From contig JABVCE010000039.1 of NCBI GenBank assembly GCA_014905635.1, forward strand, positions 124,001 through 188,000: a DNA stretch of 64,000 nt, read 5' to 3'. The notes beneath the pieces were generated by a model. That model had not been told where the DNA came from. It was given only the letters and a program-made list of their open reading frames with translations, and ran no database searches. Made by a program: the position numbers and the translations under genes. Below are positions 1 to 63,915 of the stretch, piece after piece; the stretch's first letter is position 1; the number at the start of each line of letters is the position of its first letter. Source of the DNA: Scenedesmus sp. PABB004. Lineage: Eukaryota.

Positions 1-947
1 CCTGCCCCCCCCCCACACACACACACTTGCACCTTGATGAGCTTGACCAGCGCCAGCGCGACCGGCGCGCGCGCGACGTCCTGCCCCTCCACCACGAGCT
101 GCCCCTGCAGCGCGGGGAGGACCTTGGCCATGAGCAGCGACCGCGCAGACGCCGCGACGTCGGCCGCCGCCGCCGCGGCCTCCGCGGCCTCCGCCGCCTC
201 CGCCGCCGCGGCGTCGGCGCCCGCCTCGTCGTCGTCGGTGCCGTCGCCCTCCTCCTCCTCGGCCTCGGCAGCCTCCGCCGCCGCGTCGCCGTCCGCCGCC
301 GGCGGCTGCTCGCCCGTCGCGCCCGCGAGGGCGGCGGCGGCCTCGGCCGCGGCAGCCGCGGCGACCGCCGCCGCGCGCGCGCGCGCCGCCGCCTGCGCGA
401 CGGGCGCCTGCCCGCCGCCGCCGCCGGCGGGCACTCCTGGGGCCGGCTCCAGGGGGAAGTGGAATGCGTCCAGCACGGCGCAGGTGGCGCGGATGACCTG
501 CTTGCGCGGGTGTGACGCCATGAGGCGCAACCAGCGCTGCAGCAGGCCCGCGTACTGCTCCCAGCCCAGGCGGCCTGCGAGCGCGCGCAGCGCGTCGATC
601 GCCGCGTCCGCGACCGCGCCCTCGCGGTCCGCGTCGCCCGCCTTGCGCCCGTGGCCGCCGCGCTGCGCCTCGGCCGCGGCCGCGCCCGCCGCGCTGCCGG
701 CGGCGGCGCCCTCAAACACAAACTGCTGCAGCAGCGGCGCGGCAATGTCGAGCAGCACGCGCACGCTCACGGCGTGGCCCGCCGGCGCAGCGTCGCCGCC
801 GGGCGCGCCCGGCTCCCCCGGCAGCGCGTCGCCGCGCGGCCGCTTGGCGCCGGCCGCGAGCTCGCCGTCCGCCGGTTCGCCGCCCGCCGCCTCGCCGCCC
901 GGCTGCTGCTGCGCGCCGTCGGCCAGCCTGCGCCGCTTGGGCGCGCC

Positions 948-997
<50 letters not shown>

Positions 998-3900
998 GCG
1001 CCGCGGGCGGGCCGCCGTCGTCGCCCGGCTGCGCGGCCACGAGGCGCGCGAGCAGCGTGAGCGCGCGGCCGCGGCGGTGGATCTGGAGGTGCGTGACGTT
1101 CAGGAAGAAGTCTTGCTCCGCGTCGCCGCTCGTGAGGGGGACCAGGTCCGGGAAGCGCCCGGGCAGGCGGCGCACGAGCTCGCGCAGCAGCGCCGCGTGC
1201 TCCTGCCGCACCGCGAGCGCCGCGGCGCGCAGCCCGGCCTTGGCTTGCGGATAGAGCACGCGCGGCAGCAGGCGCAGCGGGTCGTCCGGGCCCAGCGCCG
1301 CGAGGTAGCCGCCGTGCGCCGCGCCGGGCGGCGCGCCCGCGCCGGCGGCCTGCGCCGCGGCGTCGAGGCGCGCCATGGCCTCCGCGCAGCGCGCGAGCGC
1401 GCCCGCGGCCGCCTGGCGCAGCGCGAGGTCGCCGTCGTTGCGCAGGTCGGAGAAGGCCTGCAGCAGCAGCGGCAGCGCGCCGCGCCGGCTCAGCGCCGCC
1501 CAGGCGTCGGCGCTGAGCGCCGCGTAGGCGCCCAGGCGTGCGTCGTAATCAGGCTCGTCCAGCGCGCCCGCCGCCCAGGCGTTCAGACACGCAAGCAGCC
1601 CCGCGACGCGGCCGTAGCGCCCCGCCGCGCCGCCGCCGCCGCCGCCGCCGCCGTCAACGGCGCCGTCGATGAGGGCGGCGAGCGCGCGCAGCGCGGCGCC
1701 CGCGCCGCTGCGGGCGTCGCGGCCGGAGAGGCGGCCAAACAGCAGCGCCACGGTCTCCCAGTGCTGCAGCAGGCGCTCGGCCTCGCCCGCGCCGCGCGCG
1801 TCGGGCGCCTGCGCCGCGAGCGCGGACCACAGCGCCGACAGCGCGCCCAGCGCGCGCGCGACGCCGCGCTCGTCCAGCGCGGCGCGCTTGTTGCCGGAGC
1901 CGCCGCCGCCGCCGCCGCCCCTGTTGGGCGGCGCGAGCAGCGCGACGAGCGCGGCCGCGAGGTCCGACGCGGTCTCCGCGTCGGCGCAGTGCGCGCCGAG
2001 GGCCTCCATCAGCGCAAGCTGGCGCACCACGGACGGGCGCTTCGCGCCGCCGCCGCGCGCGCCCCGCCCCGGCGGACCCTGCGAGGCGGCGGCGGCAGCA
2101 GAGGTGCGCAGCGTGGGCGGGCGGCGCGCGGCGCGGTGCGGGCAAGCTGGGCAGCCGGGCAGGTGCAGTGCGGGCGCGTCGGGCCGCGCGCCAGCTCTCA
2201 CCCGGCCGCGCCCACGCCCGCCCGCCGACGCCGCCTCGGCGAGCGCCGCCTCGACGCTGACGCGCAGCGCGCCCAGCAGCTGCCGCGTCCACGGCAGCAG
2301 CACCGCGCCCAGCAGCGCGGCGGGCTCCAGCGCGAGGCAGCTCTCCACAATGCCCAGCGCCGCGCCGCGGCTGGCCTCGCTGCAGCCGCGCGCGCCGAGC
2401 ACGCCGATGCAGGCCGACAGCAGCTGCCCGCCCAGGCCCTCCGCCGCCCAGGCGGGCGTCGCGCCGCCGGGCGGCCACGCCGGCAGGGCCGCCGCGCCCT
2501 CGCCATCGCCGCCGCCGTCGACCTCCATCGCGGCGGCGCCGCCCGGCGCTGCCGCCTGGGTGCTGGGCAGGTTGCCGAGCACGCCCGCCAGCCCTGGCGC
2601 GGCCGCGAGGCTGCCGACCGCGGCCAGCAGCGCCGGCGGCGCGCTGCCGGCCGCCTCGGGGCCGAGGCGGGGCAGCAGCGGGCGCACGGCTCCGAAGAAG
2701 CGCGGCCACAGCGGGTTGAGGTCCAGCGCGGCAGGGAAGCGCTCCCACACCTGGCCCAGCAGGCGCAGGCACTGCGAGCGCAGCGCGCGGCCCTCCTCGC
2801 GCGCCTGCGTGGCGCCACCGCCGCCGCCGCCCTCGTGCGCCTCGCCGCCGCCGCCGGCGCCCGGCGCCTGCAGCGGCGCGCAGGCGAGCTCGAGCAGTGC
2901 CGCGGTGAGCGCGACGAGCGGCGGCAGCAGCGGCGCGAGGCGGTGGCCCAAGTGCGCCAGCAGGTCCTCAAATGCATTGAGGAAGCCCTGCCGCCGGCGC
3001 AGCGGCTGCGCCGCCAGGCGGCCCGGCTCCACCGCGGCCAGCCACCAGGCGAGCGGCGAGGCGAGCAGGTGGGCCGACCACCAGGGCGCCGGGATGAGCC
3101 GCGCGGCGGCCATCGCGGCGACCTCGGCCGCCTGCTCGCCGCCCTGCGTGCTGCCGCCGTCCTCGTCAGCGCCGCCGCCGCCGCCGGGCAGGGCGATCGC
3201 GGGGCCCAGGGGCATGAGCAGCAGCTCGAGCAGCGGCAGCAGCTCGTGCGACGACAGCGCCGCCAGCGCGTTGAGCACCGCCGCGCGCGCGCTCCCGGGC
3301 GCGCCGCGGCCGCCGAGGCGGCCGCTGCGCTTGGAGAGCTTGGGGTACAGCACCAGGGTCAGCAGCGGCACAAAGCCTGCGGGGCGGGGCGGCGACCAGA
3401 GGGGGCAGCGGCGGAGGGGCACGGCGGGTCGGCTGTGGCGCGTGCGCGCATGTGCACGCGGTGCCGCGTGCGCTCAGCAGGCACGAGCACGCAAGGGCGT
3501 AGGGGCGTCAGTCGACCATTGTGTTTTTTGCACCAGGGCGGTTGCCCTTCAGTGGTTTGAGTGAGTGTTGTGACATCACGCGCCGCTGCACGCGCTGCGC
3601 GCGGCGCACGCAGCCCGCCCGCGCCGCGCCGCGCGGCCCCGCGCCCCCCGCACCTGGCCGCGTGACCGCGTCGACGCGCCCCACATCCGCCGTGCCGCCC
3701 TGCTTCCCCTTGAGCTGGCTGCGCTGTGTCTGCGCCGCCGCGGCCGCCGCGTCGGGCTCCGCGCCCGCCGCGCCGCTGCCGGGGTCCAGCATCGGGGGCA
3801 GGTTGACCAGCCCGCCGCGCAGCTTGGTGTTGTCGGCGAGCTGCAGCAGCACCGCCAGCAGGTGGCCGGGCAGGCACGGAAGCTTGAACGAGCCCAGGCA

Positions 3901-6900
3901 GCGCAGCGCGGCCGCCTGCAGCCCCGGGTCGCTCGACAGCAGCTGCCGCGCCACCGCCTCGGCCAGCTCCGACGACCTGCGCCGGCGCGCGCCGCGCAGG
4001 TGGGGCGGCGAAGCAGCACGCGGGGGGGGGGGGGGGGGGGGTCGGTGGCAGGGGGCGTGTGCGCGGGGGTCGCGCGCATGCTTGCGGCGGCGCGCGCCGG
4101 CGGCGTGCTGTCCCGCCCTTCATTGACCCAGGCCACTCGCGGGCGCGTCAGTGCCGGGTAAGCAGGGGCGGTCCCGCTCTCGCGCGCCGCGCGGCTCGGG
4201 GCCGTGGGCGGGGCGCCGCCGGCGCACGGGCGGTGAGCGCCGGCGGGCCGCCCGGGCGCGCGGTGCATCGAGCCCCCCCCCCCCCCCCCCACGGCAGGCC
4301 CGCCCGCCACCACCGCCAGACGCACCTGCTGAGGCGCTTGGGGCTCTTGAGCGCGCCCAGCAGCGCCAGCCACTCCGCCATGACGCCCCGCCAGGCCTTG
4401 TGACTGAACCCCAGCGCGCCAAGGCCCTCGCGCGCGAGCGGGTCGACCAGGCCGCCGCCGCCGCCGCGGCCGCGCTTGCCACCACGCTGCGGCGCGCCGG
4501 GCGCCGCGCCCTCCGCACCCGCATGCTTGAGCTTGGCGCCCACTGCCGGCGCGGCGGCGTCGCCGCCCGCCGCCGTCTGGGCGTCGCCGCCGGCCGCGCC
4601 AGCGCCGCCAGCCTCCGTGCCGGGCTGCGCCGCAGCGTCGGGGCTGCCGCCCTCCTCGCCCTCCTCGCCGCCGTCGCCGTCCTCGTCCGCGGCGCCGCCC
4701 GCGTGCGTGACGGCGCCGGCAAACTCCAGCAGCAGCGGCACCCAGCCGTCCGCCAGGCGCTCCAGCACCGCCGGCGCCGCGCCCGCGGCCAGCCCGCGCA
4801 GGATGTGGGTGAGGCGGTTGGCGGCGTCCGTGCAGCTCGCGGACGCGGCCGCCGCGGCGCCGTAGCCCTGCGCACAGTGGCTGCTCCACGCGCGCCGCAG
4901 GTCAAAGCCGGCGCCCGGCGGCTCGGCGTCCGCGGCGCCCGCGTCGCCCGTGGCGCCGCCGCTGGCGCCGCCGAGGAACTGGCGCTGCGCCGCGGTGACA
5001 TGGCCCAGCACCAGCGGCCACGCCGCGTCCGCGTGCTGCGTGAGCGCCTGCCCCAGCGCTGCCGCCGCCGGCTGCCACAGGGGCGAGAAGCTGCGGCGTG
5101 GGCCGGGAGCGGGCGCGTGGGCGCGCGGGCGCGCGCCGCCAGGGCAGCGCGCGCGCGGCGCCCACGGGCGCCGTCGCCTCGCCGGCCAGGCGCGCGCCGC
5201 GCGGCTCACCGTATGTGCAGGGCGCCGAGCAGGCCCGCGACGAGGCCGGGCAGCAGCGCCGGCGGCAGGCGGCCATACTCCAGGTGGTTGGCCAGCCGCT
5301 CCAGCGCGACCGCCCAGCGCCGCCCCGCCTCGACGCTGCAGGGGCGCAGGTGCATGTCGCGCAGCGCCGGCAGCGCCTCGCAGGTGAGGCCCTCAAACGC
5401 AGCGCGCTCGGCGCCGCCGCCGACGCCGCTCGCCGGCGCCGCGCTGCTCGGGGCGTCGCCGCCGGTGCCGAGGTAGGCCGGCTGCTCGAAGCAGCACAGC
5501 AGCTGCAGCGCCGCGCCGCGCAGGCGCTGGCTGGGCGACAGCAGGCAGGGCAGGAGCGCCTGCACCGCGGGCGGCAGCGCCGCCGCGCCCAGCAGCGTCC
5601 GCGCCTCGGCGCCCGCCCCGCCGCAGGCGCCGGCGCCGGCCGCGCGCGCGGCCGGCGCCCCCAGCTGCCGCGCGTCGTCCAGCGCCGCGCGCAGCGCCGC
5701 CGCGAGCATGGCGGTGCCAGACACGGTGGCAAAGTCGCGCGCGCCCGCGTGCGCCGCCAGCCAGGCCAGCGCCTCGCGCGTGGCGCCCAGCAGCCGCGCC
5801 GGCGCGACGGCCGGCAGCAGCTGCGCCAGCATCGTCAGCGCCATGCCCCGCAGCTGCAGCAGGTCGGCCGCGTGGCTGCCAGGCGACGCGGCGGCGGCGC
5901 CGCAGCCGCCGCCGCCCTCGGCCGCCAGCCCCGCCTCGCACTCGCGCAGCACGCGGTCGGCGATGTCGGCGGAGTCGGCCGGCGCCGCACACGTGTGCGG
6001 CAGCAGCTGCAGCCCCGCCCAGCACCGCAGCAGCGCGCGCCGCGCGCCGCCGCCGTCGCCGCCGCCGTGGCTCCAGCCCGCCGCCAGGCGCTGCACCGCG
6101 CCCGCCAGCTCGACGCCGCCCGGCTGCGCCGTGAGCAGCAGCGGCAAGCCCGCGCCAACCGCGGCCCCCGGGCGCAGCAGCTCGCACGCGCGCACGAGCG
6201 CAGCCAGCGCCTCGTCCGCGCGGTCCGCGCTCGCGCCGTCCACGCCGCCGCCGCCGCCGCCGCCGCCGCCCGCCAGCACCAGACGCCCGAGCGCGCCGAG
6301 CAGCTGCGGCGCGAAGAGCTCCGCTGCCGCGGCCGTGCTGGGCGGCGCGAGCAGGCCGGCCGCGAGCGCGAGGAGCTCGCTGTCGGCGAGCGCGCCGGGC
6401 GCAAACAGCGGCGCCCAGGCCGGCGCGGCGGGCCGCAGCGCGGCCAGGCCCCTGCTCGCGCCGGCCTCCTTCACGTGGGCCAGCACCAGCCCCAGCACCA
6501 GCTGCGCCGTCGCGTGGCCCAGGCTCAGGCCCTCAAAGTCGGCCGCGCTGAACGCGTGCTCCTCGGCGCTGCCCTGGAGCACGTGCAGCGCGAGCAGCCC
6601 CGCCGGCGCGGCGGCGGCGGCGGCGCCGCCCCCCAGGCGCGGCAGCGCAGCCACCAGCTGCCCCGCCAGCGCCAGCAGCGGGGTGTAGTCGTCCACGCGC
6701 CCGCCGCGCCAGTAGTGCACGGACTGCGCCACCAGCGCCACGCACCGCGCCGCGCTCGCGGTGGCCTCGGCCGCCGCGTCGCCGGCGCCGGCGGCCGCGT
6801 CGCCCTCCGCCGCCCCGGCCGCCGACGCCGCCGCGGGCGCTGCCTTGCGGCCCTTGCCGCGCTTGCCGCCCGCGGGCGCCGGCGCAGCGCCAGCGCTCGC

Positions 6901-8631
6901 GGCCGACGCCGCGGCCTCTGCGACGGCCAGCCGGTGCGCGGTCGCGCCCAGCAGCGCCTCCCACAGCGCGCCGGCGCCGCCGCGCCGCGTGTGCTCGAGC
7001 ATGCGCTGCACGCACACCGCCGCCACCGCGGCGCAGCGCAGGCGCAGCTCCTCGCGGCTCAGGCCTGCGCGCAGGCGGGCGCGGCGGGCGCGGCGGGCGC
7101 GGCGGGCGCGGTGGGTGGGTCGCTCGCCGCGCATGCCGCGCGCGCCAAGCCCCCGCGCCGCGCACCTTTGGGCGCGTGGCGTGCCCGCTTTGCGGGCGGC
7201 GCGCCGCCCTGCTGCTCGCCGCCGTGCTGCTCGTCGCCCTGCTGCTCGCTGCCCCGGCCGGCAAAGTCTTCGGGCGCGAGCAGCTCCTCGTCCAGCAGCA
7301 CGCCCAGCAGCGCGCCCGCCCGGCTGTGCAGGCCGTGCTCCGGGCCCAGCACCGCCTCGGCGGCAAGCAGCCCCGCGCCGTGCGCGCGCGCCGCGCCCGG
7401 CCGCACCGCGTGCTCCGCGAGCAGCGCGCGCAGGCCGCCGCGCAGCGCCCGCGGCGCCGCGGCACGGAGCAGGAAGCCAAAGGTCTCGGCCGCGAGGCAG
7501 CGCACGTGGCGCTCGGCGTGGTAGCGGAGGCCTGCCGCGCGCGTCGGCGGCGCGTGCGGGCGGGCGCGGCGGGCGCCGGCGCGTGGGCTGGGGCGCGGCG
7601 CCGCCGTCCGCCGAGGGGGCGGGCCCGCGCCGTCGGCGCGCGGCGGCGCTGCCTCGCCGCGCGGCACGAGGCGCACCCGTGGTGTGCTTGAGCGTGAGCG
7701 GCAGCGCCGCGCTGAGCTGGCGCGCGAGCGCCTTGCAGATGCCCGCCGCGCAGTTGAACAGGCCCTCGAGCACGTCCGGCTCGCTGGCGCACGCGCCGCC
7801 GGACGGCGCGAGCAGCCAGGTGAAGCTGCGCCGAGCGCGGGCAGCGGCGGGCGGGCGGGCGGGCGGGGGCCGTCAGAGGCTGCGCGCGTCGCGCGGCGTT
7901 TGCGTCGCGCGGCGCGGCGGCTCACCGCTCCCACACGCCGGGCAGGTGTGGCAGCATCTCATCCTGCAGGTCCCGCGCCGCGGCCACGAGCAGCGCAAAG
8001 AGCGGCGGCAGGCTGTGCGCCGCCTCGGGACGCAGCGCGCCCAGCAGTGCGCCGAGCGCCTGCTGCTTGTGCAGCAGCAGCAGCGGCAGGCTCGCCGCCC
8101 AGGGGCGCAGCTGGCGCTCGACGGCGAGCCAGTGCGGCGCGACGTTGAGCTCGCGCCACCTGCGCGCGCGAGGCGGCGCGTGTGCGCGCGTGTGTGTGTG
8201 CGCGCGGGGCGCGGCGCACCGCTCGGTGCGCGCGCGGGCCGCCCTGCCGCCGCCGCGTTGCCGCCCAGCCGCCGCGGCGCCGCTGCGCAGCCGCGGCTCA
8301 CTCTGAGACGGCCTCCTGGAAGAAGCAGCTCGCGCCGTGCGCCGGCTCGCGCCGCACCTTGCCCACGCGGCGGTAGACATCCACGTCGACCTGGCGCGCA
8401 GCGGCGGCGGCGGCGGCGCGGGCGGGGCGGGGCGGGGCGGGTCGCGGCGCCGCCGCGAGCGAGCCGTCGGGCAGCGCGGCGCCTCGCCGCCGGCCGGCGC
8501 TACTGGCCGCTGCCGCCGGCCGCCCCGCGCACCTCATCGATGCGCTGGGCGATGGTCTTGAAGCGGTGCCGGTTGGGCGCGCGGGCCTTCGCGGGCGCCG
8601 CGGCGGCCTCGTCGCCGCTGCTGTCCGCCAT
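1..8631 (-). CDS. UTP20: U3 snoRNA-associated protein 20 (SSU processome HEAT/DRIM protein); multi-exon, 3' end runs off the window
   Basis: ATG at 8631. Spliced N-terminus MADSSGDE...RHRFKTIAQRIDE|VDVDVYRR...CFFQEAV|WRELNVAPHW...ASLPLLLLHKQQ...SLPPLFALLVAAARDLQDEMLPHLP matches the UTP20 N-terminus. DRIM-like segment LLSSDPGLQAAALRCLGSFK...LVLYPKLSKRSGRLGGRG..SARAAVLNALA at about 3950-3260. Confidence 0.9.
3504..3584 (-). ncRNA. Intronic box C/D snoRNA candidate, possibly double-guide
   Basis: AT-rich island in a UTP20 intron, sense to host. C box GUGAUGU (3579-3573), D' CUGA (3552-3549), D CUGA (3511-3508), terminal GGCG/CGCC stem, internal AGGGC-AACC-GCCCU hairpin. C' box not clearly recognisable. 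Confidence 0.75.
4106..4265 (-). ncRNA. Intronic box H/ACA snoRNA candidate, copy A (UTP20 intron)
   Basis: 167/168 identical to 10231-10398. 3' hairpin with bipartite pocket CUGCUU / CAAUGA and ACA box (4111-4109) 14 nt after the upper stem. 5' end approximate. Confidence 0.8.
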
Positions 8632-9232
8632 CGCGGCGCCGTGCGTCGACAGGGGGCCCCTCACGCTGACATGGGCCGGGGGCTGGGGGAAGGCGACGTG
8701 ACCCACCCGCAGGCGCCGCCAGGGGGCTCGCCGTCGCCGCCGGCCCGGGCGCGCTGCGCCGGCGGCTCGCGCGCGTCGCTGTCGGCTGGGACCGGCGGCG
8801 GAGCTGCCCGCGGCCGCGTCGCACGCGCGTTGTGGGCGTCGCGCGGAACGGCGCGGCGCGGCGGCGCGGGGCTGCCCAGGAGAGCTGGCGGGGCATGTTT
8901 TTGACATGCGGCACCTCGCTGCCTCGTCCTGCGCCGCCGCAGGCAGGCTGGGCGCGCTCTCGGCATACTCCGCTCTCCAGCGCCACCGAAACTTGGCTCG
9001 CCGCTGCGCGCACACGCTCGCTCGCGCCACACGCGGGCCCGCAGGCCGCGCCGACAGCTGCACGCGCTGCACGCACGCACGGCGGGCTGCTCTCCGGCCG
9101 CGCTCGCGGTCCAGATAGCGGGCGCGGCCTCGAGACCGGCGGCGCGCGGCCCGGCGGCGCGCCTGGCCGGCAGCAGCAGCAGCGGCAGCGGCAGCAGTGG
9201 CGGCGGCGAGCGGCGGCCGGCGCGGCGCGGCG

Positions 9233-10649
9233 ATGCTGGCGCTCGGCGCCACGCACGGCGGGGTGGCGCCTCGCTGCGGCTGTAGGAGGGGAGCGGCAGC
9301 GGCGCCCCTGCGTCCGCCGGCGGCGCCCCTGCCCGCGCGGCCGCGTGGCGACGCCTGCCCGGCGGCCGTGGTGCGGCCGCCGGCGCCGGTTGTGGCGGCG
9401 GCGGCGGCGCGGCGCCCGCGCGGCGCGCGCCCTGCGCCGCGCGGCGTGCGCGTGGCGGCGGCGCCCGACGCGCAGCCTCCTGGCGCGGGCGGCGCGACGG
9501 CGCGCGGCGGCGAGGCGGCGCGCGGCGGCGGCGAGGAGGAGTGGTGCGTGCTCAACTTTTACCACCTGGCCGACGTCGCCGACCCCGAGGAGGTGCGGCG
9601 GCGGCGGCGGCGGCGGCGGCGCGCGCGCGCCCAAGCCCGCTGGGGAGCAGGGCGCAGGCGCCCCGCCCGCGCGCGTGGCGCCCCGGGCGAGCCCGGCCCC
9701 CGCGCCGCGCCGCACGCCCCCCCCCCTCCCCCAGATGGTGTCGCGGCACCGCGCGTTCATCGAGTCCCGCGGCCTGACCAGCCTGTGCGGCCGCATCTAT
9801 ATCAGCGCCCAGGGCATCAACTGCCAGGGCGGCGGCACGGCGGCGCACGCGGCCGCGTACGTCGCGTGGGTGGGGTCGCTGCCAGAGTTCCGCGGCCTCT
9901 TCCACACGCTCTGGCCGGCCGAGGGCCCCGCGTTCCCCAAGCTCCGGCTCAAGGTCAAGCCCAACCTCATCAGCCTCGCCGGCGGCATGGCGGCGCTGCC
10001 GGTGACCGACCCCGCCGCCCGCGCGACGCCGCTGTCGCCGGCCGAGTGGCGCGAGAAGCTCGGCGAGGCGGTGGCGGTCAACGCAGACGTCGACGCGGGC
10101 CGGGCCGACCCGGTGCGCAGGGAGGGGCTGGGGAGATGGATATGGGGGCAGGGGGCAGGGGGAGCACGCGGCAGCCCAGGGCGCAGGCGGGCAGCGCACG
10201 CGCACGCGCACGCGCACGCGCACGCGAGCACACCGCGCGCCCGGGCGGCCCGCCGGCGCTCACCGCCCGTGCGCCGGCGGCGCCCCGCCCGCGGCCCCGA
10301 GCCGCGCGGCGCGCGAGAGCGGGACCGCCCCTGCTTACCCGGCACTGACGCGCCCGCGAGTGGCCTGGGTCAATGAAGGGCGGGACAGCACGCCGCCGCG
10401 CACTCACGCGCGGTCCCACGCGCGGCGCCCGCGCACCCGTCCCTCGCCGCCGACGCCCCGCGCGCCTCTGCCCGCGGCGCCCGCTGCCCTGCCAGTCCAA
10501 GCGCGTGGTGGTGATGGACCTGCGCAACGACTACGAGTGGGACGCCGGCCACTTTGCGCTCGCGCCGCGCCCCGACGAGGAGGTGTTTGCAGGTGCGGAG
10601 CGGCGAGGCGCGCAGCGGCGCTGGCCGGCAGCGCTGCTGCACGCGCCGG

Positions 10650-10683
<34 letters not shown>

Positions 10684-11964
10684 GACGTGCGCGCCCGCGC
10701 GCGTGCCCGCAGAGACGCCCGTCGGCGGCGGCGACGGCGAGGTGCCGTCGCCGCTGCGCGGGGCCGACCCGGAGAACACGGAGGTCCTGGTGCGACGCGC
10801 CGCCTGGCCTGGCCTGGCCCGCCGCCGCCCTGGCCGCGGCCTGGCCGCCGCCCTGGCCGCAGCCTCGGCCGGGGCCCTGGCCGCAGCCTCGGCCGCGCGT
10901 TGACCGCCCGCGACGCCGCGCGCCGCCGCGCGCGCGCCGCCAGATGTACTGCACCGGCGGCATCCGCTGCGACGTGTACAGCGCGCTGCTGCGGGCGCGC
11001 GGCTTCACCCGCCTCTACACCCTGCACGGCGGCGTGCAGCACTACCTGCGCGAGGCCGGCGGCGAGCACTGGGACGGCAGCCTCTTTGTATTTGATGGGC
11101 GCATGGCCATCAACCCCGCGCTGCCGCCCGGCGCGCACGCGGGTGTGCGGGGCCGCGGGGCCGCCGCGCCGGGCGCGCGCGGCGCCGCGGCGGTCGCGGG
11201 CGCGCGCCCGGCGGCGACGCCCCGGTCGGCGCGCGCAAACGCAGCCGCCGCCGCCTTGGCCGCGCCCGCCGCAGGCGACGGCCTCCCCGCCGCGGTGCCG
11301 TGCGCGCTGTGCGGCGGCGTGGCGGCGCTGCCGCACGTCAACTGCGCCAACATCGACTGCAACGAGCTCTTCATCGCCTGCGCGGCCTGCAAGACGCGCT
11401 TCCACGGCTGCTGCTGCGAGGCCTGCCAGTCGGCGCCGCGGCTGCTGCGGCCGATCAAGATCAACGGCGGCAACTGTGAGGGAGCCCCGGCGCGGCGCGT
11501 CGCGTGCCCGCAGCCGCGGACGCCCCGCCGCCCGCCGGCGCCCCGCCGCCCGGCGACGCCCTGCCGCCCGCCGCGCCGCCGCGCAGACGGTTCGTGGAAC
11601 CAGTACGCCGACGTGGCGGCCACGGCGCCCGTCATCGCGGCCGGCCGCACGCGTAAGGCCGCGCTCGCGGGCCCACGCCGCGCGCCGCACGGCCGCCGCC
11701 CGCCTGCCCCGCCGGCCCGCCCACGCGCGCGCGGCCTGCCGCGCTGCGCCGCCCGCAGACGAGGGCCGCGTGGCGCGCCGCGCGCGGCGCCGCGCGGCGA
11801 TGCGGGAAAAGCGGCAGGCGGCGCTCGAGGAGCGGCAGCAGCTGCGCGCCGCGGTCAAGAAGGCCGTGCGCGCGGCCGCCGCCGAGGCTGAGGCGGCGGC
11901 ACAGCAGCGGGAGGGAGAGCAGGAGCAGGAGCAGCGCGGCGCCGTTGTGGCGGGCGGGGCGTGA
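9233..11964 (+). CDS. Rhodanese-domain protein, TrhO/YceA (UPF0176) family, STR8-like; probable organelle transit peptide; multi-exon
   Basis: Motifs VLNFYHLADVADP, LCGRIYISAQGIN, AFPKLRLKVKPNLI, VVMDLRNDYEWDAGHF, MYCTGGIRCD, LYTLHGGVQHYL..WDGSLFVFDGR, and a Cys-rich NCANIDCNELFIACAAC..GCCCEAC tail. Confidence 0.9.
10231..10390 (+). ncRNA. Intronic box H/ACA snoRNA candidate, copy B (rhodanese gene intron)
   Basis: 5' hairpin 10234-10315, imperfect H box AGAGCG at 10316-10321, 3' hairpin 10325-10383 with pocket CUGCUU (10331-36) / CAAUGA (10371-76), ACA at 10385-87. Confidence 0.8.
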
Positions 11965-12216
11965 GCGCGCCGGCGCCGTCACGGCCCGGGCCACAGCGCT
12001 GAGACGCGCGGCGCGGCGGTGACGGCCCGCCTCTCTCCTGCGCACTACTACAGACCGCGATCAGCTGTGCACGCGCTCTCGCGGCGCAACAGCTGTGCGT
12101 GGCCCACCAATCTCCGACGCGCACGCCGCTGCTGCGCGCGCCGCTCGCCGCCGCTGGACCGCGCCCCTGTTCGCACCGCCCAGCGTGGGCTCTCCGACCG
12201 ATCGCACTCCGAGCTG

Positions 12217-13618
12217 ATGGAGCTCGCTGGCAGCAAAGCGCGCCGCTGGGCTGCCGCTGCCTGGCCCGCGCGCTCGGCCGCCGTCCCCCGAGCGAGCGGC
12301 CTGCTGCTGGCAGCCGGCCTGCTACTACTAGGGATTGCGCTCCTGCGTGGCCAGAGACCAGCAGAACCGCCCCCCTGGCCGGCGCCGGCGGCGGGGGCTG
12401 GCCGGCCCGCGCAGCTCCCGGCGGCGCGCGGCCCGCCGGCCTTCGGCCCGGGCGCGGCAACGTTCAAGATTCTGCACGTCTCGGACACGCAGGCCGGCGG
12501 CGCCGGCTGCGCAGCGCTCGACGCGGCCGGCGCGCGCGCGCTCGCCGAGCTGCTCGCGGCCGAGGTGGCCGACGGCGGCGTTGACCTGGTGGTCCATACG
12601 GGCGACGTGGTGCACGGCGACGACGTGTCGGGCACCGACACCGCCGCCTGGGCGACCTTCGCGCTCACGCCCCTGGCCGCGGCGGGCGTCCCGTTCGCGG
12701 TCACGCTGGGCAACCACGACGGCGTGCAGCGGCGCGCGCGCCGGCGCCGGGGCGCGGCCGAGGCGCAGGGCGGCGCCGGAGGCGCGCGCGCGTGTGCTGG
12801 CCGCGTGCGCCGCGCTGCCGGGCTGCCTCGTGCCGCCCGCCGCTGTCGCGGCCGCCGCGGCGGGCGGGGCGGCAAACTATGAGCTGCCCGTGCTCCTCAG
12901 CTCGCCGCACGGTGCCGCCAACCCAGAGCCAGAGCGGGTGGCGTTCCGCCTCGTCCTGCTGGACACGGGCGGCGGCAGCGCGCCGAAGGGCGTCCCCGAG
13001 AGCAGCCTGGACTGGCTCGAGAGCCTGGCGGAGCCGCGCGGCGCGAGCGCGAGCGGCGGCGGCGGCGCGGCCACGCCCCCGCCAGCGCTGCTCTTCCGTC
13101 ACCACCCCTCGGTGCAGCTGGCGGACGCGTGGCGCGGTCGCGACGCACACGACACGCGCTGCCCGTCACACGCAGGGAGCGTCGACGGGGAGCGGGTCCA
13201 ACCGGCGCCGGCCGCGGACGAGGCGCGCTACCTGGTGGCACTGCGCGCGCTGCGCGTCGTCGTGAGTGCGGTGGGGCACGACCATGCCAACGACCGCTGC
13301 TGCCGCGTGGGCGACGGCAGCGACGGCGGCGGCGGCGGGGCGGGGGGCCGGCAGGAGTGGGGCTGGCAGGAGTGCTACGCCAGACACGCCTCGTTCGGCC
13401 AGTACTGGCTCGGGGACGACGGCGCGACGCTGCGCTTCTGCACGAGCTGGCGCGTGTTGCCGCGCCGCGGCCCGCACGCCGTGCCGCGCGGCGTGCGCGT
13501 GTTCTCGCTCGGCCGCAACGGCAGCGTTGCCACGCACCTGCGCCTGGCCGCGCCGCGCGGCGGCGGCAGCGCCAAGGGCCCCGTCACCCTGCTGCACCCG
13601 GGCGGCGCCGACGGCTGA
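12217..13618 (+). CDS. Calcineurin-like metallophosphoesterase (DCR2 / PAP16-like) with N-terminal membrane anchor; frame change near 12730-12768
   Basis: Motifs in order: FKILHVSDTQ, DLVVHTGDVV, PFAVTLGNHD, then in another frame LVLLDTG, LLFRHHP, AVGHDHAND, PRGVRVF. Hydrophobic LLLAAGLLLLGIALL near the N-terminus. Confidence 0.8.
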
Positions 13619-30342: not shown

Positions 30343-30980
30343 ATGGCCGATCGGCGGGGGGACCACAGGCGACGGGTGCGGGAGGACGAGCCAGGCGGCG
30401 AACCCCCGCCTCTGCCGCCCGCCCGGTAGCCGCCGCCCGCCCGCCCGCCTGCGCGCCGCGCAGCTCCAAGGAGGAGCGCCGGCGGGGTGGCCGGGCGGAG
30501 GTCGAGCGCCTCACAGCCGAGCTGCAGAGCAAGCTGGAGCTGCTCGAACAGACGCAGCAGCAGCACGCCGCCAGCAGACATGAGGTGAGGTGGGCAGTGG
30601 GCGCCCGCCTGGTGCTGCTGGGATGTGATGTGCCGCAAGGGCGCTCCCCTGCGGCCCTGCGCAGCCGCGCGGGCAGCGACGGCCCGCCGACCGCTGCTGC
30701 AGGATCAGCTTGCTGTTCACTCTGTGGCAGATTATGTGATGGACATCTGGAAGATGCGGGACACCGTCCTTAAGGGGCGCGGGACCAATGGGCGCGAGCC
30801 TGTGGTGTAACTATCTTTATCTTTATCTTTATCTTTGCTGCCGCCGACCGCCGCCGCTGCCGCCGCCGCCCGCAGCACGACCTGCTGGTCGGCTACTGCG
30901 ACGCGCTGCAGTGGGCCCTGGAGCACATGGCGGCTGGCCAGCAGCAGCAGAGCGACGACGGCGACGATGACACCAGCTCA
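30343..30980 (+). pseudogene. 3'-truncated copy 1 of the coiled-coil (bZIP/DOG1-like) cassette gene
   Basis: Encodes RRRGGRAEVERLTAELQSKLELLEQTQQQHAASRHE|HDLLVGYCDALQWALEHMAAGQQQQSDDGDDDTSS, near-identical to the genes at 43507-45031 and 61826-63351. Homology stops at 30980. Confidence 0.85.
30701..30836 (+). mobile_element. 5'-truncated non-LTR retrotransposon 3' end with (CTTTAT)n tail
   Basis: Low-GC insert absent from the paralogous introns. ORF end DQLAVHSVADYVMDIWKMRDTVLKGRGTNGREPVV* is followed directly by CTATCTTTATCTTTATCTTTATCTTT. Imperfect flanking repeat CCGCCGACCGCYGCYGC at 30684-30700 and 30841-30857. Confidence 0.75.
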
Positions 30981-42949: not shown

Positions 42950-45362
42950 GTGCCGGCCCAGAGAGGTCAGGGCGCGGGCAGCGAGAGCGCAAGGCACCTG
43001 CGGGAACCTCGTCACAGGAATCACCCCCGATCGCCGGCTGCCAGCAGCACCGCCTGCGCTGCACGACAGCATCGCGCGCGCGCCGGCGATGCCACCCCTG
43101 AGTGGCTGGTGCGAGTCCACCCGCATGCCCCCGCACCGTTGGCCTCGCTCCCTGGCAGCCTGCCCCCAGTTTGCCGTGCCGCATCCAGCCGTGCAGCCTC
43201 CACGTTCAGTGTCAACTTGACAGCCCGCCCGAGCTCGTTGGGCTGTGACGTGCCTGCTGCCTTGAGGCACGATAAACAGTTGAGCATGCGCTGTGGACGC
43301 GTGAGGTGCAGCCACAGCTGCAGCCACAATCGCCCCCACGCCTAGTTCTGATTTGAAGGATCGCCCCCCCCCCGCCCCTGCCGGGGGCGGTCGTTCATTA
43401 AGCTCTCAGCAGGGCGCTGAGGGTAAAACACAGATGCAGGACAAACTACAAAGCGGGCCGCTGCCAGCGGCGTGCCTTGAGCCCCTGTGCGCACGCCGGC
43501 GCCAGCTCACAGCGCGCCCTCGCGCACCAACGCGACCACCGCCTGCGCCATCACATTCGCATTGGGCGTGAATGGGCTGCTGTGGACGGCTACTCGCGCC
43601 AGCTGGCGCCATGTGAACGTGCCGAAAAAGGTGAGGCCATGCATACCGCGCAGCAGCGCGCCCTTTCTCGACAGGATCACAAGGCGGTCGAGCTTGGCGC
43701 TGTCCGACGTCGTGCGCTCCAGGTGCTGCAGCATGCTGCTGCGCGCGCCGTCGTGGCCGCCGGCTGCCAGCTGCGTCTGCAGCTCGCGCACCTGCAGGCG
43801 GCGGCAGCGCGCGAGGATGAGAGGCGGCGCGCTCACAGCGGGCAGAGCCGCCCGCCCGCTGGCGGCGCACCTGCTCCAGCAGCGGCGCGTGCAGGCGGTT
43901 GAACGCAGCCAGGCCGGCCAGCATGTCGGCGACCTGGTCGCGGCTCAGGCGCACGCCCAGCACCACCGCCTTGTAGCGCGCGAGGTCGTGCTCTGTGGCC
44001 TGCTCGCCCGTCACGCGGTTGGTGAGGCAGAGCTCGGGCACGAGCTCGTTGCGCTTGGAGAGTGTTGCGCTCATCAACAGGTACATGGCCCTGCAAAGCG
44101 CGGCCTTGAGGCGGCTCAGTGGCGCCAGCTCGCCGCTGCACGGGCCGTCCAGCAGCACCAGGCTCACTGACAGCTCTCGCACGACCTGCGGCGCAGCAGC
44201 GGCGGCCGCCGTCGGGCACACGGCGACGCGGCTGCACGTGCCGGCGCACAGCACCCGGCCACGCCCGATGGCAGCCACACACCTCATCCATGGCGGCGCA
44301 CGCGTCCTCCAGGGTCAGCGTGTCGATGTTGGGGTGACGCGGCTGCACCAGCAACCACCGCCACCAGCGAAACGGGTCGTGCCGCGGCGCAACGCGGTCG
44401 TCTGCCGCCGCGCCCGGCTCGTACTCGCTGCCGGGCGCGCACGCGGCGTCGCCGGGTGCACAGGCGCTGTCACGCCCTGCCGGCGTCCCTGGCGGCGCCG
44501 CGCTGTACGGCAGCCGCACCAGCTGCTCCAGCAGCGCCACCTCGTCTTCGCTGGGCGCAGACCGACCGCTGCTGCCGCTGGTGCCGCTGCGCACGGGGTC
44601 GGCGCACGGCTCTGAGCTGGTGTCATCGTCGCCGTCGTCGCTCTGCTGCTGCTGGCCCGCCGCCATGTGCTCCAGGATCCACTGCAGCGCGTCGCAGTAG
44701 CCGACCAGCAGGTCGTGCTGCGGGCGGCGGCGGCAGCAGCGGCGGCAGCGGCAGCGGTCGTCTGCCGCGCGCTCGCCGGGCCGCCGGCGCCCGCTGCGCA
44801 GGGCCGCAGGGGAGCGCCCTCGCGGCACAGCGCGGCCCAGCAGCACCAGGCGGGCGCCCACTGCCCGCGCACCTCATGTCTGCTGGCGGCGTGGTGCTGC
44901 TGCGCCTGTTCGAGCAGCTCCAGCTTGCTGTGCAGCTCGGCTGTGAGGCGCTCGACCTCCGCCCGGCCACCCCGTCGACGGTCTGCCTTGGAGCTGCCGT
45001 AGGATCCAATCTTGACGCGCCGGCGCGGCATGCTTCCGCAGGAAGCAGCCCGGCCTCCCACGCCCTGCAGCACGGCGGGTGCGGCCCTAGCGACGCGCCA
45101 GACGCTGCATGGCGGTCGAACGAGTGACTGGCGGGCGGGCGGGCGTCAGCAGGCGGGCGGCAGAGGCGCGGGTTCGCCGCCCGGGGCTCGTCCACCGGCG
45201 CCCGTCGCCTGTGGTCCACGCGCCGATCGCCCAGCGGCACGTGCCGGCGCACGGCTTGGCAGGACAGACGCGCGGCACAGCGCGCCGGTCAGCCGGCGTC
45301 ACCGGGGTCGGCGCGCGGCCGCCGCCTGACCGCACGCACGCGCCGCCGCTGTCACAGCCCTG
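42950..45362 (-). repeat. Cassette copy 2: gene plus conserved 5' and 3' flanks
   Basis: Flanks and introns align by eye with 61421-63915 (+) and with 30041-30980 and 33278-33369 (+). Boundaries approximate. Confidence 0.85.
43507..45031 (-). CDS. Coiled-coil protein, bZIP-like zipper plus DOG1/TGA-like helical domain (copy 2, intact, 4 exons)
   Basis: MPRRRVKIGSYGSSKADRRRGGRAEVERLTAELHSKLELLEQ...|HDLLVGYCDALQW...|VVRELSVSLVLLD...LGVRLSRDQVADMLAG|...GTFTWRQLARVAVHSSPFTP...EGAL*, GT-AG introns. The gene is clear; the family label is tentative. Confidence 0.8.
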
Positions 45363-61420: not shown

Positions 61421-63915
61421 GTGCCGCACGTGGAGGCGGCTGTGCAGGTGCGCCGACCCGCTCCCGGCGCAGCAGGGGGCTGTGCAGGCAGCGGCGCTGC
61501 GCGGGCGCGCGGCCGGGCGGCGGCCGCGCGCCGCGACTTCGGTGACGCCGGCTGACCGGCGCGCACGGCGCGGATCGCCCGACCGCCGCCCGCCAGAATA
61601 CCTCTCTGGCCGATCGGTGGGCGGACCGACGGCGGGGGGAGGGTGAACCCCGGCCGGGCGCGGCGGGGGCGAACCCGCGAGGCTCTCGCCGCCCGTGTGG
61701 CGCGCCGTCGACGCCCGCCCGCCCGCCAGTCACTCGTTCGACCGCCATGCAGCGTCTGGCGCGTCGCTAGGGCCGCACCCGCCGTGCTGCAGGGCGTGGG
61801 AGGCCGGGCTGCTTCCTGCGGAAGCATGCCGCGCCGGCGCGTCAAGATTGGATCCTACGGCAGCTCCAAGGCAGACCGTCGACGGGGTGGCCGGGCGGAG
61901 GTCGAGCGCCTCACAGCCGAGCTGCACAGCAAGCTGGAGCTGCTCGAACAGGCGCAGCAGCAGCACGCCGCCAGCAGACATGAGGTGCGCGGGCAGTGGG
62001 CGCCCGCCTGGTGCTGCTGGGCCGCGCTGTGCCGCGAGGGCGCTCCCCTGCGGCCCTGCGCAGCGGGCGCCGGCGGCCCGGCGCGCGCGCCGCCAGACGG
62101 CGACCGCTGCTGCTGCCGCCGCTGCTGCTCGCAGCACCACCTGCTGGTCGGCTACTGCGACGCGCTGCAGTGGACGCTGGAGCACATGGCGGCGGGCCAG
62201 CAGCAGCAGCAGAGCGACGATGACGATGCCAGTTCAGAGCCGTGCGTCGACCGCGCGCGCAGCAGCACCAGCCGCAGCGGCAGCAGCGGTCGGGCGGCGC
62301 CCAGCGAGTGCCAGGTGGCGCTGCTGGAGCAGCTGGTGCGGCTGCCGTACAGCGCGGCGCCGCCAGGGGCGCTGGCAGGGCACGGCAGCGCCTGCGCGCC
62401 CGGCGGCGCCGCGTGCGCGCCCGGCAGCGAATACGAGCCGGGCGCGGCGGCAGACGACCGCGTCGCGCCGCGGCACGACCCGTTTTGCTGGTGGCGGTGG
62501 TTGCTGGTGCAGCCGCCTTTTCCAAACATCGACACGCTGACCCTGGAGGGCGCGTGCGCCGCCATGGATGAGGTGCGTGGCTGCCGTGGGGCGTGGCCGG
62601 GCGCCGGGTGCCGGCAAGCGCCGCAGCCGCGTCGCCGTGTGCCCGACGGCGGCCGCCGCCGCTGCGTCGCAGGTCGTGCAAGAGCTGGCCCTGAGCCTGG
62701 TGCTGCTGGACGGGCCGTGCAGCGGCGAGCTGGCGCCACTGAGCCGCCTCAAGGCCGCGCTTTGCAGGGCCATGTACCTGTTGATGAGCGCAACACTCTC
62801 CAAGCGCAACGAGCTCTTGACTGAGCTCTGCCTCACCAACCGCGCGACGGGCGAGCAGGCCACAGAGCACGACCTCGCGCGCTACAAGGCGGTGGTGCTG
62901 GGCGTGCGCCTGAGCCGCGACCAGGTCGCCGACATGCTGGCCGGCCTGGCTGCGTTCAACCGCCTGCACGCGCCGCTGCTGGAGCAGGTGCGCCGCCAGC
63001 GGGCGGGCGGCTCTGCCCGCTGTGAGCGCGCCGCCTCTCATCCTCGCGCGCTGCCGCCGCCTGCAGGTGCGCGAGCTGCAGACGCAGCTGGCAGCCGGCG
63101 GCCACGACGGCGCGCGCAGCAGCATGCTGCAGCACCTGGAGCGCACGACGGCGGAGAGCGCCAAGCTCGACCGCCTGGCACTTCTGTCGAGCAAGTGCGG
63201 GCTGCTGCGCGGCATGCTTGGCGTCACCTTGTACGGCGCGCTCACGTGGCGCCAGCTGGCGCGAGTAGCGGTGCTCAGCAGCCCATTCACACCTGCGGCG
63301 CCCGTGCTGGCGCAGGCGGTGGCCGCGTTGGCGCGCGAGGGCGCGCTGTGAGCTGGCGCCGGCGTGCGCACGGGGGCTCAGGTCGCACCGCTGGCAGCGG
63401 CGCAATTTGTTGTCCTGCATCTGTGTTCTCTGTCGCCACCCTGCTGAGAGCTCAACGAACGACCGCACGCGTGTCCGGCAGCGCAGGAGGGGGGGGGCTC
63501 TTCAGTTCAAACAGGGGTGGGGTGGAGTGGGGTGATTCATTCATTGTGGCTGCGCCTCACAGCTTGGGATTATAACGCGCGCGCACGTGCCTCAAGGCAG
63601 CAGGCACGTCTCACAGCCCAACGGGCTCGGGCGGGCTCGGGCGAGCTGTCAAGGTTGACACCGAACGTGGAGGCTGCACGGCTGGGTGCGGAACGGCAAA
63701 CTGGGGGCAGGTCGCCCGAGAGCGCGGTGCGGGGGCACGCGGGTGGACTCGCACAGCACTGATCAGGTGGCAGTGCCACCGGCATCGCCGGCGCGTGCGC
63801 GGTGCTGTCGTGTGACGCTGGCCGCGGCCGCCGGCAGCTGGCGATGGGGGAGGGGCAGTTTTGCATGCATGTGATGGCGCGGGCAGGTGTGTGACGAGGT
63901 TGCCCGAGGTGCCGA
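61421..63915 (+). repeat. Cassette copy 3: gene plus conserved flanks, inverted relative to copy 2
   Basis: 5' flank matches about 30156-30420; 3' flank matches about 42990-43500 (reverse complement). Boundaries approximate. Confidence 0.85.
61826..63351 (+). CDS. Coiled-coil protein, bZIP-like zipper plus DOG1/TGA-like helical domain (copy 3, intact, 4 exons)
   Basis: Same exon structure as copy 2; ends GALTWRQLARVAVLSSPFTPAAPVLAQAVAALAREGAL*. Confidence 0.8.

Follow-up and report, generated by a model that had tools for sequence, protein, structure and literature searches.

We wanted to understand why two neighbouring genes of Scenedesmus sp. PABB004 carry almost the same short sequence in their introns, what this sequence is, and how it came to be present twice. 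The window analysed, that is, the whole stretch of DNA, comprises 64,000 nt with 79.4% GC and zero N. A repeat search of this window gave two inverted arms, 4098-4265 and 10231-10398, of 168 nt each, 99% complementary and separated by a spacer of 5965 nt. When the two copies were compared directly, 167 of the 168 positions matched, the sole mismatch being a G at 10291 facing an A at 4205 as read on the minus strand (element position 61, inside the 5' hairpin described below). No third copy or fragment was found in the 64-kb window by blastn with 10100-10560 as the query, the remaining matches being short, GC-rich and of low complexity, and JGI metagenome contigs contained no match (0) to a 22-nt segment taken from the 3' hairpin. 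The window also holds an unrelated inverted duplication of about 2.4 kb and 87% identity (61477-63850 versus 43024-45360), with related fragments of 130-240 nt at 30460-30980, which could represent a gene family or else a mobile element. The two copies of the 168-nt unit and the introns that hold them are as follows.

10231 to 10398, plus strand: copy 1 of the 168-nt unit, 83.9% GC, in an intron of the TrhO/rhodanese gene (repeat search and direct comparison).
4098 to 4265, minus strand: copy 2 of the unit, in an intron of UTP20 (repeat search and direct comparison).
10113 to 10495, plus strand: host intron of copy 1 in the TrhO/UPF0176 rhodanese gene, GT..AG, 383 nt (P0003 reads across the junction).
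3977 to 4325 (read 4325-3977), minus strand: host intron of copy 2 in UTP20, GT..AG (GTGCGT...CAG), 349 nt (flanking exons collinear with homologues).

The host genes were recognized by their domains and homologues. Pfam placed UTP20_N on the minus strand, in the frame 3-3473, and UPF0176_N together with Rhodanese_C on the plus strand, the latter two being domains of TrhO-type tRNA uridine hydroxylases. The source-annotated protein P0003 spans the junction of intron 10113-10495 (...DAGRADP/SKRVVVMD..., the slash marking the junction), homologues concur, and the only 100%-identical database protein for this gene carries the source's name 'STR8 [Scenedesmus sp. PABB004]'. Among the relatives recovered with a TrhO exon as the query are Tetradesmus obliquus, at 75% identity, and Scenedesmus sp. 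NREL 46B-D3, at 70%. On the other strand, UTP20 exons running from 8393 down to 30 align collinearly with four green-algal UTP20 proteins, with the intron 4325-3977 between them. A homologue search with a 66-aa UTP20 exon gave no match, and the P0002 search did not return the UTP20 gene's own product because it covered proteins up to 3000 aa only. The putative starts lie at 8631 (minus strand) for UTP20 and 9233 (plus strand) for TrhO, with about 600 bp between the genes, which are therefore head-to-head. The 168-nt unit is duplicated and lies in an intron of each host, in the sense orientation. The first-pass annotation had claimed as much, and these parts of its description were recovered: the 167/168 identity by the repeat search and the direct comparison with its one mismatch at 10291/4205, the intronic sense placement by the GT..AG introns, the P0003 junction and the collinearity of the UTP20 exons, and the head-to-head arrangement by the two putative starts. 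Besides, the source model P0003 (897 aa) fuses the TrhO/rhodanese part with a downstream Metallophos (calcineurin-like phosphoesterase) region at 11965-12882 on the plus strand; since homologues of the TrhO part have only 399-530 aa, this model may join two genes.

We read the 168-nt unit as a box H/ACA guide snoRNA present in two near-identical intron-encoded copies, one in UTP20 and the other in the divergent TrhO-type rhodanese gene, a reading to which we give a probability of roughly 0.78. The parts of the unit on which it is built are listed here for copy 1, with the ACA box of copy 2 at the end.

10234 to 10315, plus strand: predicted 5' hairpin domain, element positions 4-85, with an 8-bp lower stem, a long GC stem and a small side hairpin (fold).
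10316 to 10321, plus strand: hinge with the H-box-like AGAGCG (fold and sequence reading).
10325 to 10383, plus strand: predicted 3' hairpin, with a lower stem at 10325-10330/10378-10383 and an upper stem plus apex at 10337-10370 (fold).
10331 to 10336, plus strand: predicted 5' guide strand of the pocket, CUGCUU, pairing with rRNA AAGCAG (rRNA scan and fold).
10371 to 10377, plus strand: predicted 3' guide strand of the pocket, CAAUGAA, 6 of its 7 bases pairing with rRNA UCAUUG (rRNA scan and fold).
10385 to 10387, plus strand: ACA box, 14 nt past the upper stem, with a predicted mature 3' end near 10390 (fold).
4109 to 4111, minus strand: ACA box of copy 2, whose guide strands are at 4165-4160 and 4125-4119 (sequence).

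When the 3' hairpin (59 nt, element positions 95-153) was folded alone, we observed a 6-bp lower stem, a pocket of 6 nt plus 7 nt and an upper stem, the open-pocket model reaching -26.7 kcal/mol versus -27.0 for the minimum free energy structure, that is, 0.3 kcal/mol apart. From the upper stem to the ACA, the 7-nt guide strand, the 6-bp stem and 1 nt make 14 nt, within the 14-16 nt of a canonical pocket. The ACA, a box that in H/ACA RNAs directly follows the 3' hairpin and stands 3 nt from the mature 3' end, occupies element positions 155-157, 1 nt beyond the lower stem, and the duplicated unit extends 11 nt past it, so that identity between the copies does end where the first-pass annotation had put it. 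The 13 bases of the pocket have 38% GC inside an element of 83.9% GC, A or T being found at 8 of 13 pocket positions versus 19 of 155 elsewhere in the element (Fisher p = 1.2e-4, in a post hoc test). The consensus of the H box is ANANNA. In the hinge, AGAGCGGGA, the best candidate is AGAGCG, which departs from this consensus by a G at the sixth position and retains two of the three fixed A. The 5' domain is predicted to form a three-way junction and contains no canonical guide pocket at the 14-16 nt spacing; the 5' hairpin of the unit appears to be structural only. Taken whole, the 168-mer folds no better than its shuffles (z = -0.95, with 33 of 200 shuffles as stable). When 10215-10415 (201 nt) was submitted to Rfam, no family, SNORA1 included, matched at E <= 10, and the longer stretch 3500-11000 (7.5 kb) gave no snoRNA at this cutoff either. 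The apical loop of the 5' hairpin (10260-10269, element positions 31-40) carries CACCGCCCGU, a same-sense 10-nt identity with the SSU rRNA matches of two fetched rDNA loci, at a place that we take to be near the 3' end of SSU rRNA, by the decoding site. As this identity to the 18S 3' region has a blast E of 7.4, it is probably due to chance, and we dropped it as a meaningful match.

The target of the pocket was looked for in public eukaryotic rDNA fetched with two standard primers, ITS4 and LR11, which means in the rRNA of other organisms. The ITS4 set, made of genome contigs, contained SSU, 5.8S and, of LSU, no more than the first 2.3 kb and the last 0.4 kb, the LSU region of about 2270-2970 being absent from it, and no pocket target was found in this set. 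The LR11 set contained 105 eukaryotic LSU loci from metagenome contigs, viral contigs having given 0. In these loci, one recurrent site was found, 5'-(A)UCAUUG-U-G-AAGCAG-3', in LSU helix 91, to which the pocket is complementary at 12 of 13 positions, as 6+6 Watson-Crick base pairs flanking an unpaired U-G. Exactly this string (ATCATTG-TG-AAGCAG) is present in 11 of the 37 loci containing helix 91. It was also the only site to reach 12 pairs under definition A, the pocket definition fixed beforehand; under definition B, in which an A-U pair is included, no recurrent site was detected in the LR11 loci, and the hypothetical 5' pocket gave no recurrent rRNA target, only 8 singleton matches. Against a 9.4-kb rDNA reference, 12 matches were reached by 2 of 2000 shuffled guides and by 3 of 2000 random guides. 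Because three pocket definitions were scanned in all, the permutation figure has to be multiplied by about 3, which gives about 0.004 as a fair estimate. A U at the target position is not universal: among the 37 loci, 14 carry U, 18 carry C and 5 carry A or G there. The position pairs across a covarying stem.

To place this uridine in published numbering, we counted from it to two anchors in the fetched rRNA. The third base of the A-loop U-G-U comes 29 nt after the target U, and the first C of GACCGUCG comes 65 nt after it. The A-loop bases are Arabidopsis U2911/G2912/U2913 and the first C of GACCGUCG is C2949 (Streit and Schleiff 2021, Supplementary Table 2, PMC8351944). From both anchors, U2913 and C2949, the target is therefore U2884 of Arabidopsis 25S rRNA. 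In the same table, U2884 is one of 64 pseudouridine entries for Arabidopsis 25S, and its row gives a predicted pseudouridine with snoR142 as the guide, mapping by Sun et al. 2019, human U4441 as the equivalent and '-' for yeast (PMC8351944). Judged by sequence, then, we show the complementarity of the predicted 3' hairpin, its statistics and its correspondence to a published pseudouridine site. In the mechanism that we propose, each copy would be released from its spliced host intron and then be assembled into an H/ACA particle, the proteins of such particles being Cbf5/dyskerin, Nop10, Nhp2 and Gar1, in which the 3' pocket CUGCUU / CAAUGAA would bind LSU helix 91 as 5'-UCAUUG-[U]G-AAGCAG-3'. 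The bracketed U would thereby be positioned for conversion to pseudouridine, at the residue equivalent to Arabidopsis 25S psi2884 (second pocket of snoR142) and human 28S psi4441 (ACA1). Here we infer that the unit is expressed and processed, that the modification itself takes place and that this alga's rRNA has a U at the target site.

When the sequence was scanned for islands of low GC, 3479-3597 stood out. This island lies in the next UTP20 intron, directly downstream of the one bearing the H/ACA unit, and contains a box C/D snoRNA candidate.

3504 to 3584, minus strand: box C/D snoRNA candidate (low-GC scan, boxes).
3579 to 3573, minus strand: C box of the candidate, GUGAUGU.
3552 to 3549, minus strand: D' box of the candidate, CUGA.
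3511 to 3508, minus strand: D box of the candidate, CUGA.

The candidate has a 4-bp terminal stem, and its top Rfam match, SNORD35, is below threshold (E = 0.67, 14.6 bits versus a gathering score of 36). The 12 nt that precede box D form 9 Watson-Crick pairs, 1 G-U pair and 2 mismatches with the conserved LSU sequence UAGACCGUCGUG, the fifth base of this guide facing the C that corresponds to Arabidopsis Cm2949 (U35), yeast Cm2959 and human Cm4506. The D' guide yielded no target. The D guide also matches helix 91 over 9 bp, which would predict methylation at Arabidopsis U2878; as no 2'-O-methyl site is listed at 2876-2881, this second reading of the guide was dropped. UTP20 thus appears to carry two guides whose sites are neighbours in LSU domain V. 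The candidate in the adjacent intron speaks for UTP20 as the typical snoRNA host that the first-pass annotation had seen in it, and the broader claim of a duplicated intronic H/ACA snoRNA draws support from the geometry of the 3' hairpin, from the rRNA complementarity at a known pseudouridine site and from this neighbouring candidate.

How does the unit compare with known guides? According to Chen and Wu 2009 (PMC2685112), Arabidopsis snoR142 is 154 nt long and guides psi26 of U6 by its first pocket and psi2884 of 25S by its second. Like snoR142, the unit would act on this uridine from its 3' hairpin, and its predicted size of about 157-160 nt is similar. With the same uridine addressed from the same hairpin, the unit therefore has the same predicted job as snoR142. 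The two differ in that the first pocket of snoR142 serves U6 whereas the 5' hairpin here has no pocket, and in that snoR142 is intergenic and clustered whereas the unit is intronic (PMC2685112). They are likened here by target and hairpin. Human ACA1 (SNORA1) guides psi4441 of 28S, the site equivalent to the target here (PMC8351944 and PMC2685112). Since Rfam gave no match at E <= 10, the unit is related to SNORA1 by target only and not by demonstrated family membership. For this comparison, we take SNORA1 to be Rfam RF00408; ACA1 is intron-encoded, like most vertebrate snoRNAs. Another comparison is with the snoRTs of mammals, which are snoRNA-sized copies in introns of other genes, often in the sense orientation, and which bear poly(A) tails and target-site duplications from L1-type insertion. 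Like them, the unit is snoRNA-sized, intronic and sense; unlike them, it has neither a poly(A) tail nor a target-site duplication. Closer to Scenedesmus, PMC7671301 describes green-algal and plant snoRNAs as mostly multigene families born by duplication, and the title of Chen et al. 2008, cited there, places Chlamydomonas snoRNAs in intronic clusters. Compared with these multi-copy genes, we find one unit per intron in two divergent hosts, inverted and nearly identical, and no tandem intron cluster.

Part of these observations would also fit a functionless intron piece that was copied once to a nearby break, by templated insertion or by a template switch in repair, and that owes its H/ACA-like shape and its rRNA match to chance. 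In favour of such a piece are the fold of the whole element, which is not significant, the lack of an Rfam match and the imperfect H box; besides, a sequence of 84% GC is easily drawn into stems, and a single ACA near one end is not rare. We nevertheless leave it only a small chance: no more than 2 of 2000 shuffled guides reach the 6+6 bp match, the matched site is among the 64 listed pseudouridine sites of Arabidopsis 25S, the pocket is the AT-rich part of the element, the ends of the duplicated unit are within a few bases of the predicted RNA ends, and the adjacent intron carries another snoRNA-like unit. The placement of both copies, sense and intronic, also bears on whether the unit could be a short MITE- or SINE-like mobile element with many genomic copies, two of which would lie in the window by chance. 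Other repeated DNA is indeed present in the window; however, the 64 kb hold no third copy or fragment, neither copy shows terminal inverted repeats, a target-site duplication or an A-rich tail, and the 22-nt piece had no match in JGI metagenome contigs, which makes this origin very improbable.

Still less probable is an assembly artefact in which one real locus would have been doubled by a mis-join or a polishing error, since each copy has a well-formed intron to itself and flanks that differ from those of the other copy, the exons on either side are collinear with homologues, the copies differ by one base, and the repeat is internal to the contig and not at its end. The reading of the unit as a duplicated H/ACA guide snoRNA is the one that we retain.

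How the duplicated guide came to be in two introns was approached through the flanks of the copies. It had been claimed that the rest of the two introns was unrelated. This holds for the upstream flanks, for which 313 of 500 shuffles score as well as the real pair, but not fully for the downstream flanks, which show a weak, nearly collinear similarity over 58 nt (42 of 58 positions, 72% identity). On the +1 diagonal, 53 of 80 positions agree, versus 27-40 of 77-80 on neighbouring diagonals. This similarity is significant versus dinucleotide shuffles (7/500) and unselected windows (4/1036 and 2/1292), and marginal versus composition-matched C-rich windows, of which 7 of 169 and 5 of 250 score as high. 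At neither copy could a poly(A) tail, a target-site duplication or a terminal inverted repeat be seen, and inspection of both copies agrees with the first-pass annotation on the lack of the first two. The flanks consist of G/C homopolymer, GCGCAC repeat or unique GC-rich sequence. Simple repeats of the GCGCAC type lie on both sides of the TrhO copy, at 10194-10226 and 10397-10424, and this copy looks as if it sits within a simple-repeat tract. A (GCGCAC)5.5 microsatellite is found just 5' of this copy and a related 12-nt repeat, CGCGCACCCACG, in 2.3 copies, begins at its downstream edge. The UTP20 copy is bracketed, on the gene strand, by complementary homopolymers, G18 upstream (4273-4290) and C20 downstream (4022-4041). 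Only two further runs of G or C in the 64 kb have a length of 18 or more. The two homopolymers could pair as a long external stem in the pre-mRNA, or they could be left over from the segment's arrival.

There are hints that UTP20 was the donor, namely its second snoRNA candidate and the simple repeats bracketing the TrhO copy. A recent copy, by DNA or by RNA and most likely from UTP20 to the TrhO intron, is the origin that we tentatively favour, at just short of even odds. If the similarity of the downstream flanks is real, it points to an older and longer DNA-level duplication, and the near-identity of the core then needs gene conversion or very strong constraint or selection; such an older, longer duplication, in which gene conversion between the inverted copies, 6 kb from each other, maintains the identity of the functional core, is plausible as well, at somewhat less than an even chance. 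What remains of the probability goes to other origins. In a more specific form, the pair would result either from RNA-templated or template-switch repair, copying only the (pre-)snoRNA into the neighbour's intron 6 kb away with none of the hallmarks of a retroelement, or from gene conversion that still goes on between the inverted intronic copies and affects only the functional RNA. We regard this form as unlikely. If it were true, by either process, two doses of one guide RNA would depend on a single bidirectional promoter region of about 600 bp.

Altogether, the unit is predicted to guide a pseudouridine known in plant and human LSU rRNA, which makes it a real but ordinary kind of gene. The guide RNA biology itself is expected, the unit belonging to a known kind, the H/ACA guide snoRNAs, and only the way in which it was copied might be out of the ordinary. 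A full-text search found no paper that combines Scenedesmus with snoRNA and pseudouridylation. The analysis adds a well-supported H/ACA guide RNA, and probably also a C/D one, to this green-algal lineage, and it suggests that the helix-91 pseudouridine of Arabidopsis and human is guided in chlorophytes too. For the annotation of extremely GC-rich genomes, it means that covariance models fail here and that small AT-richer islands in introns mark guide elements. Finally, the near-identical pair in head-to-head hosts offers a natural case for how snoRNA genes move between introns or stay identical.
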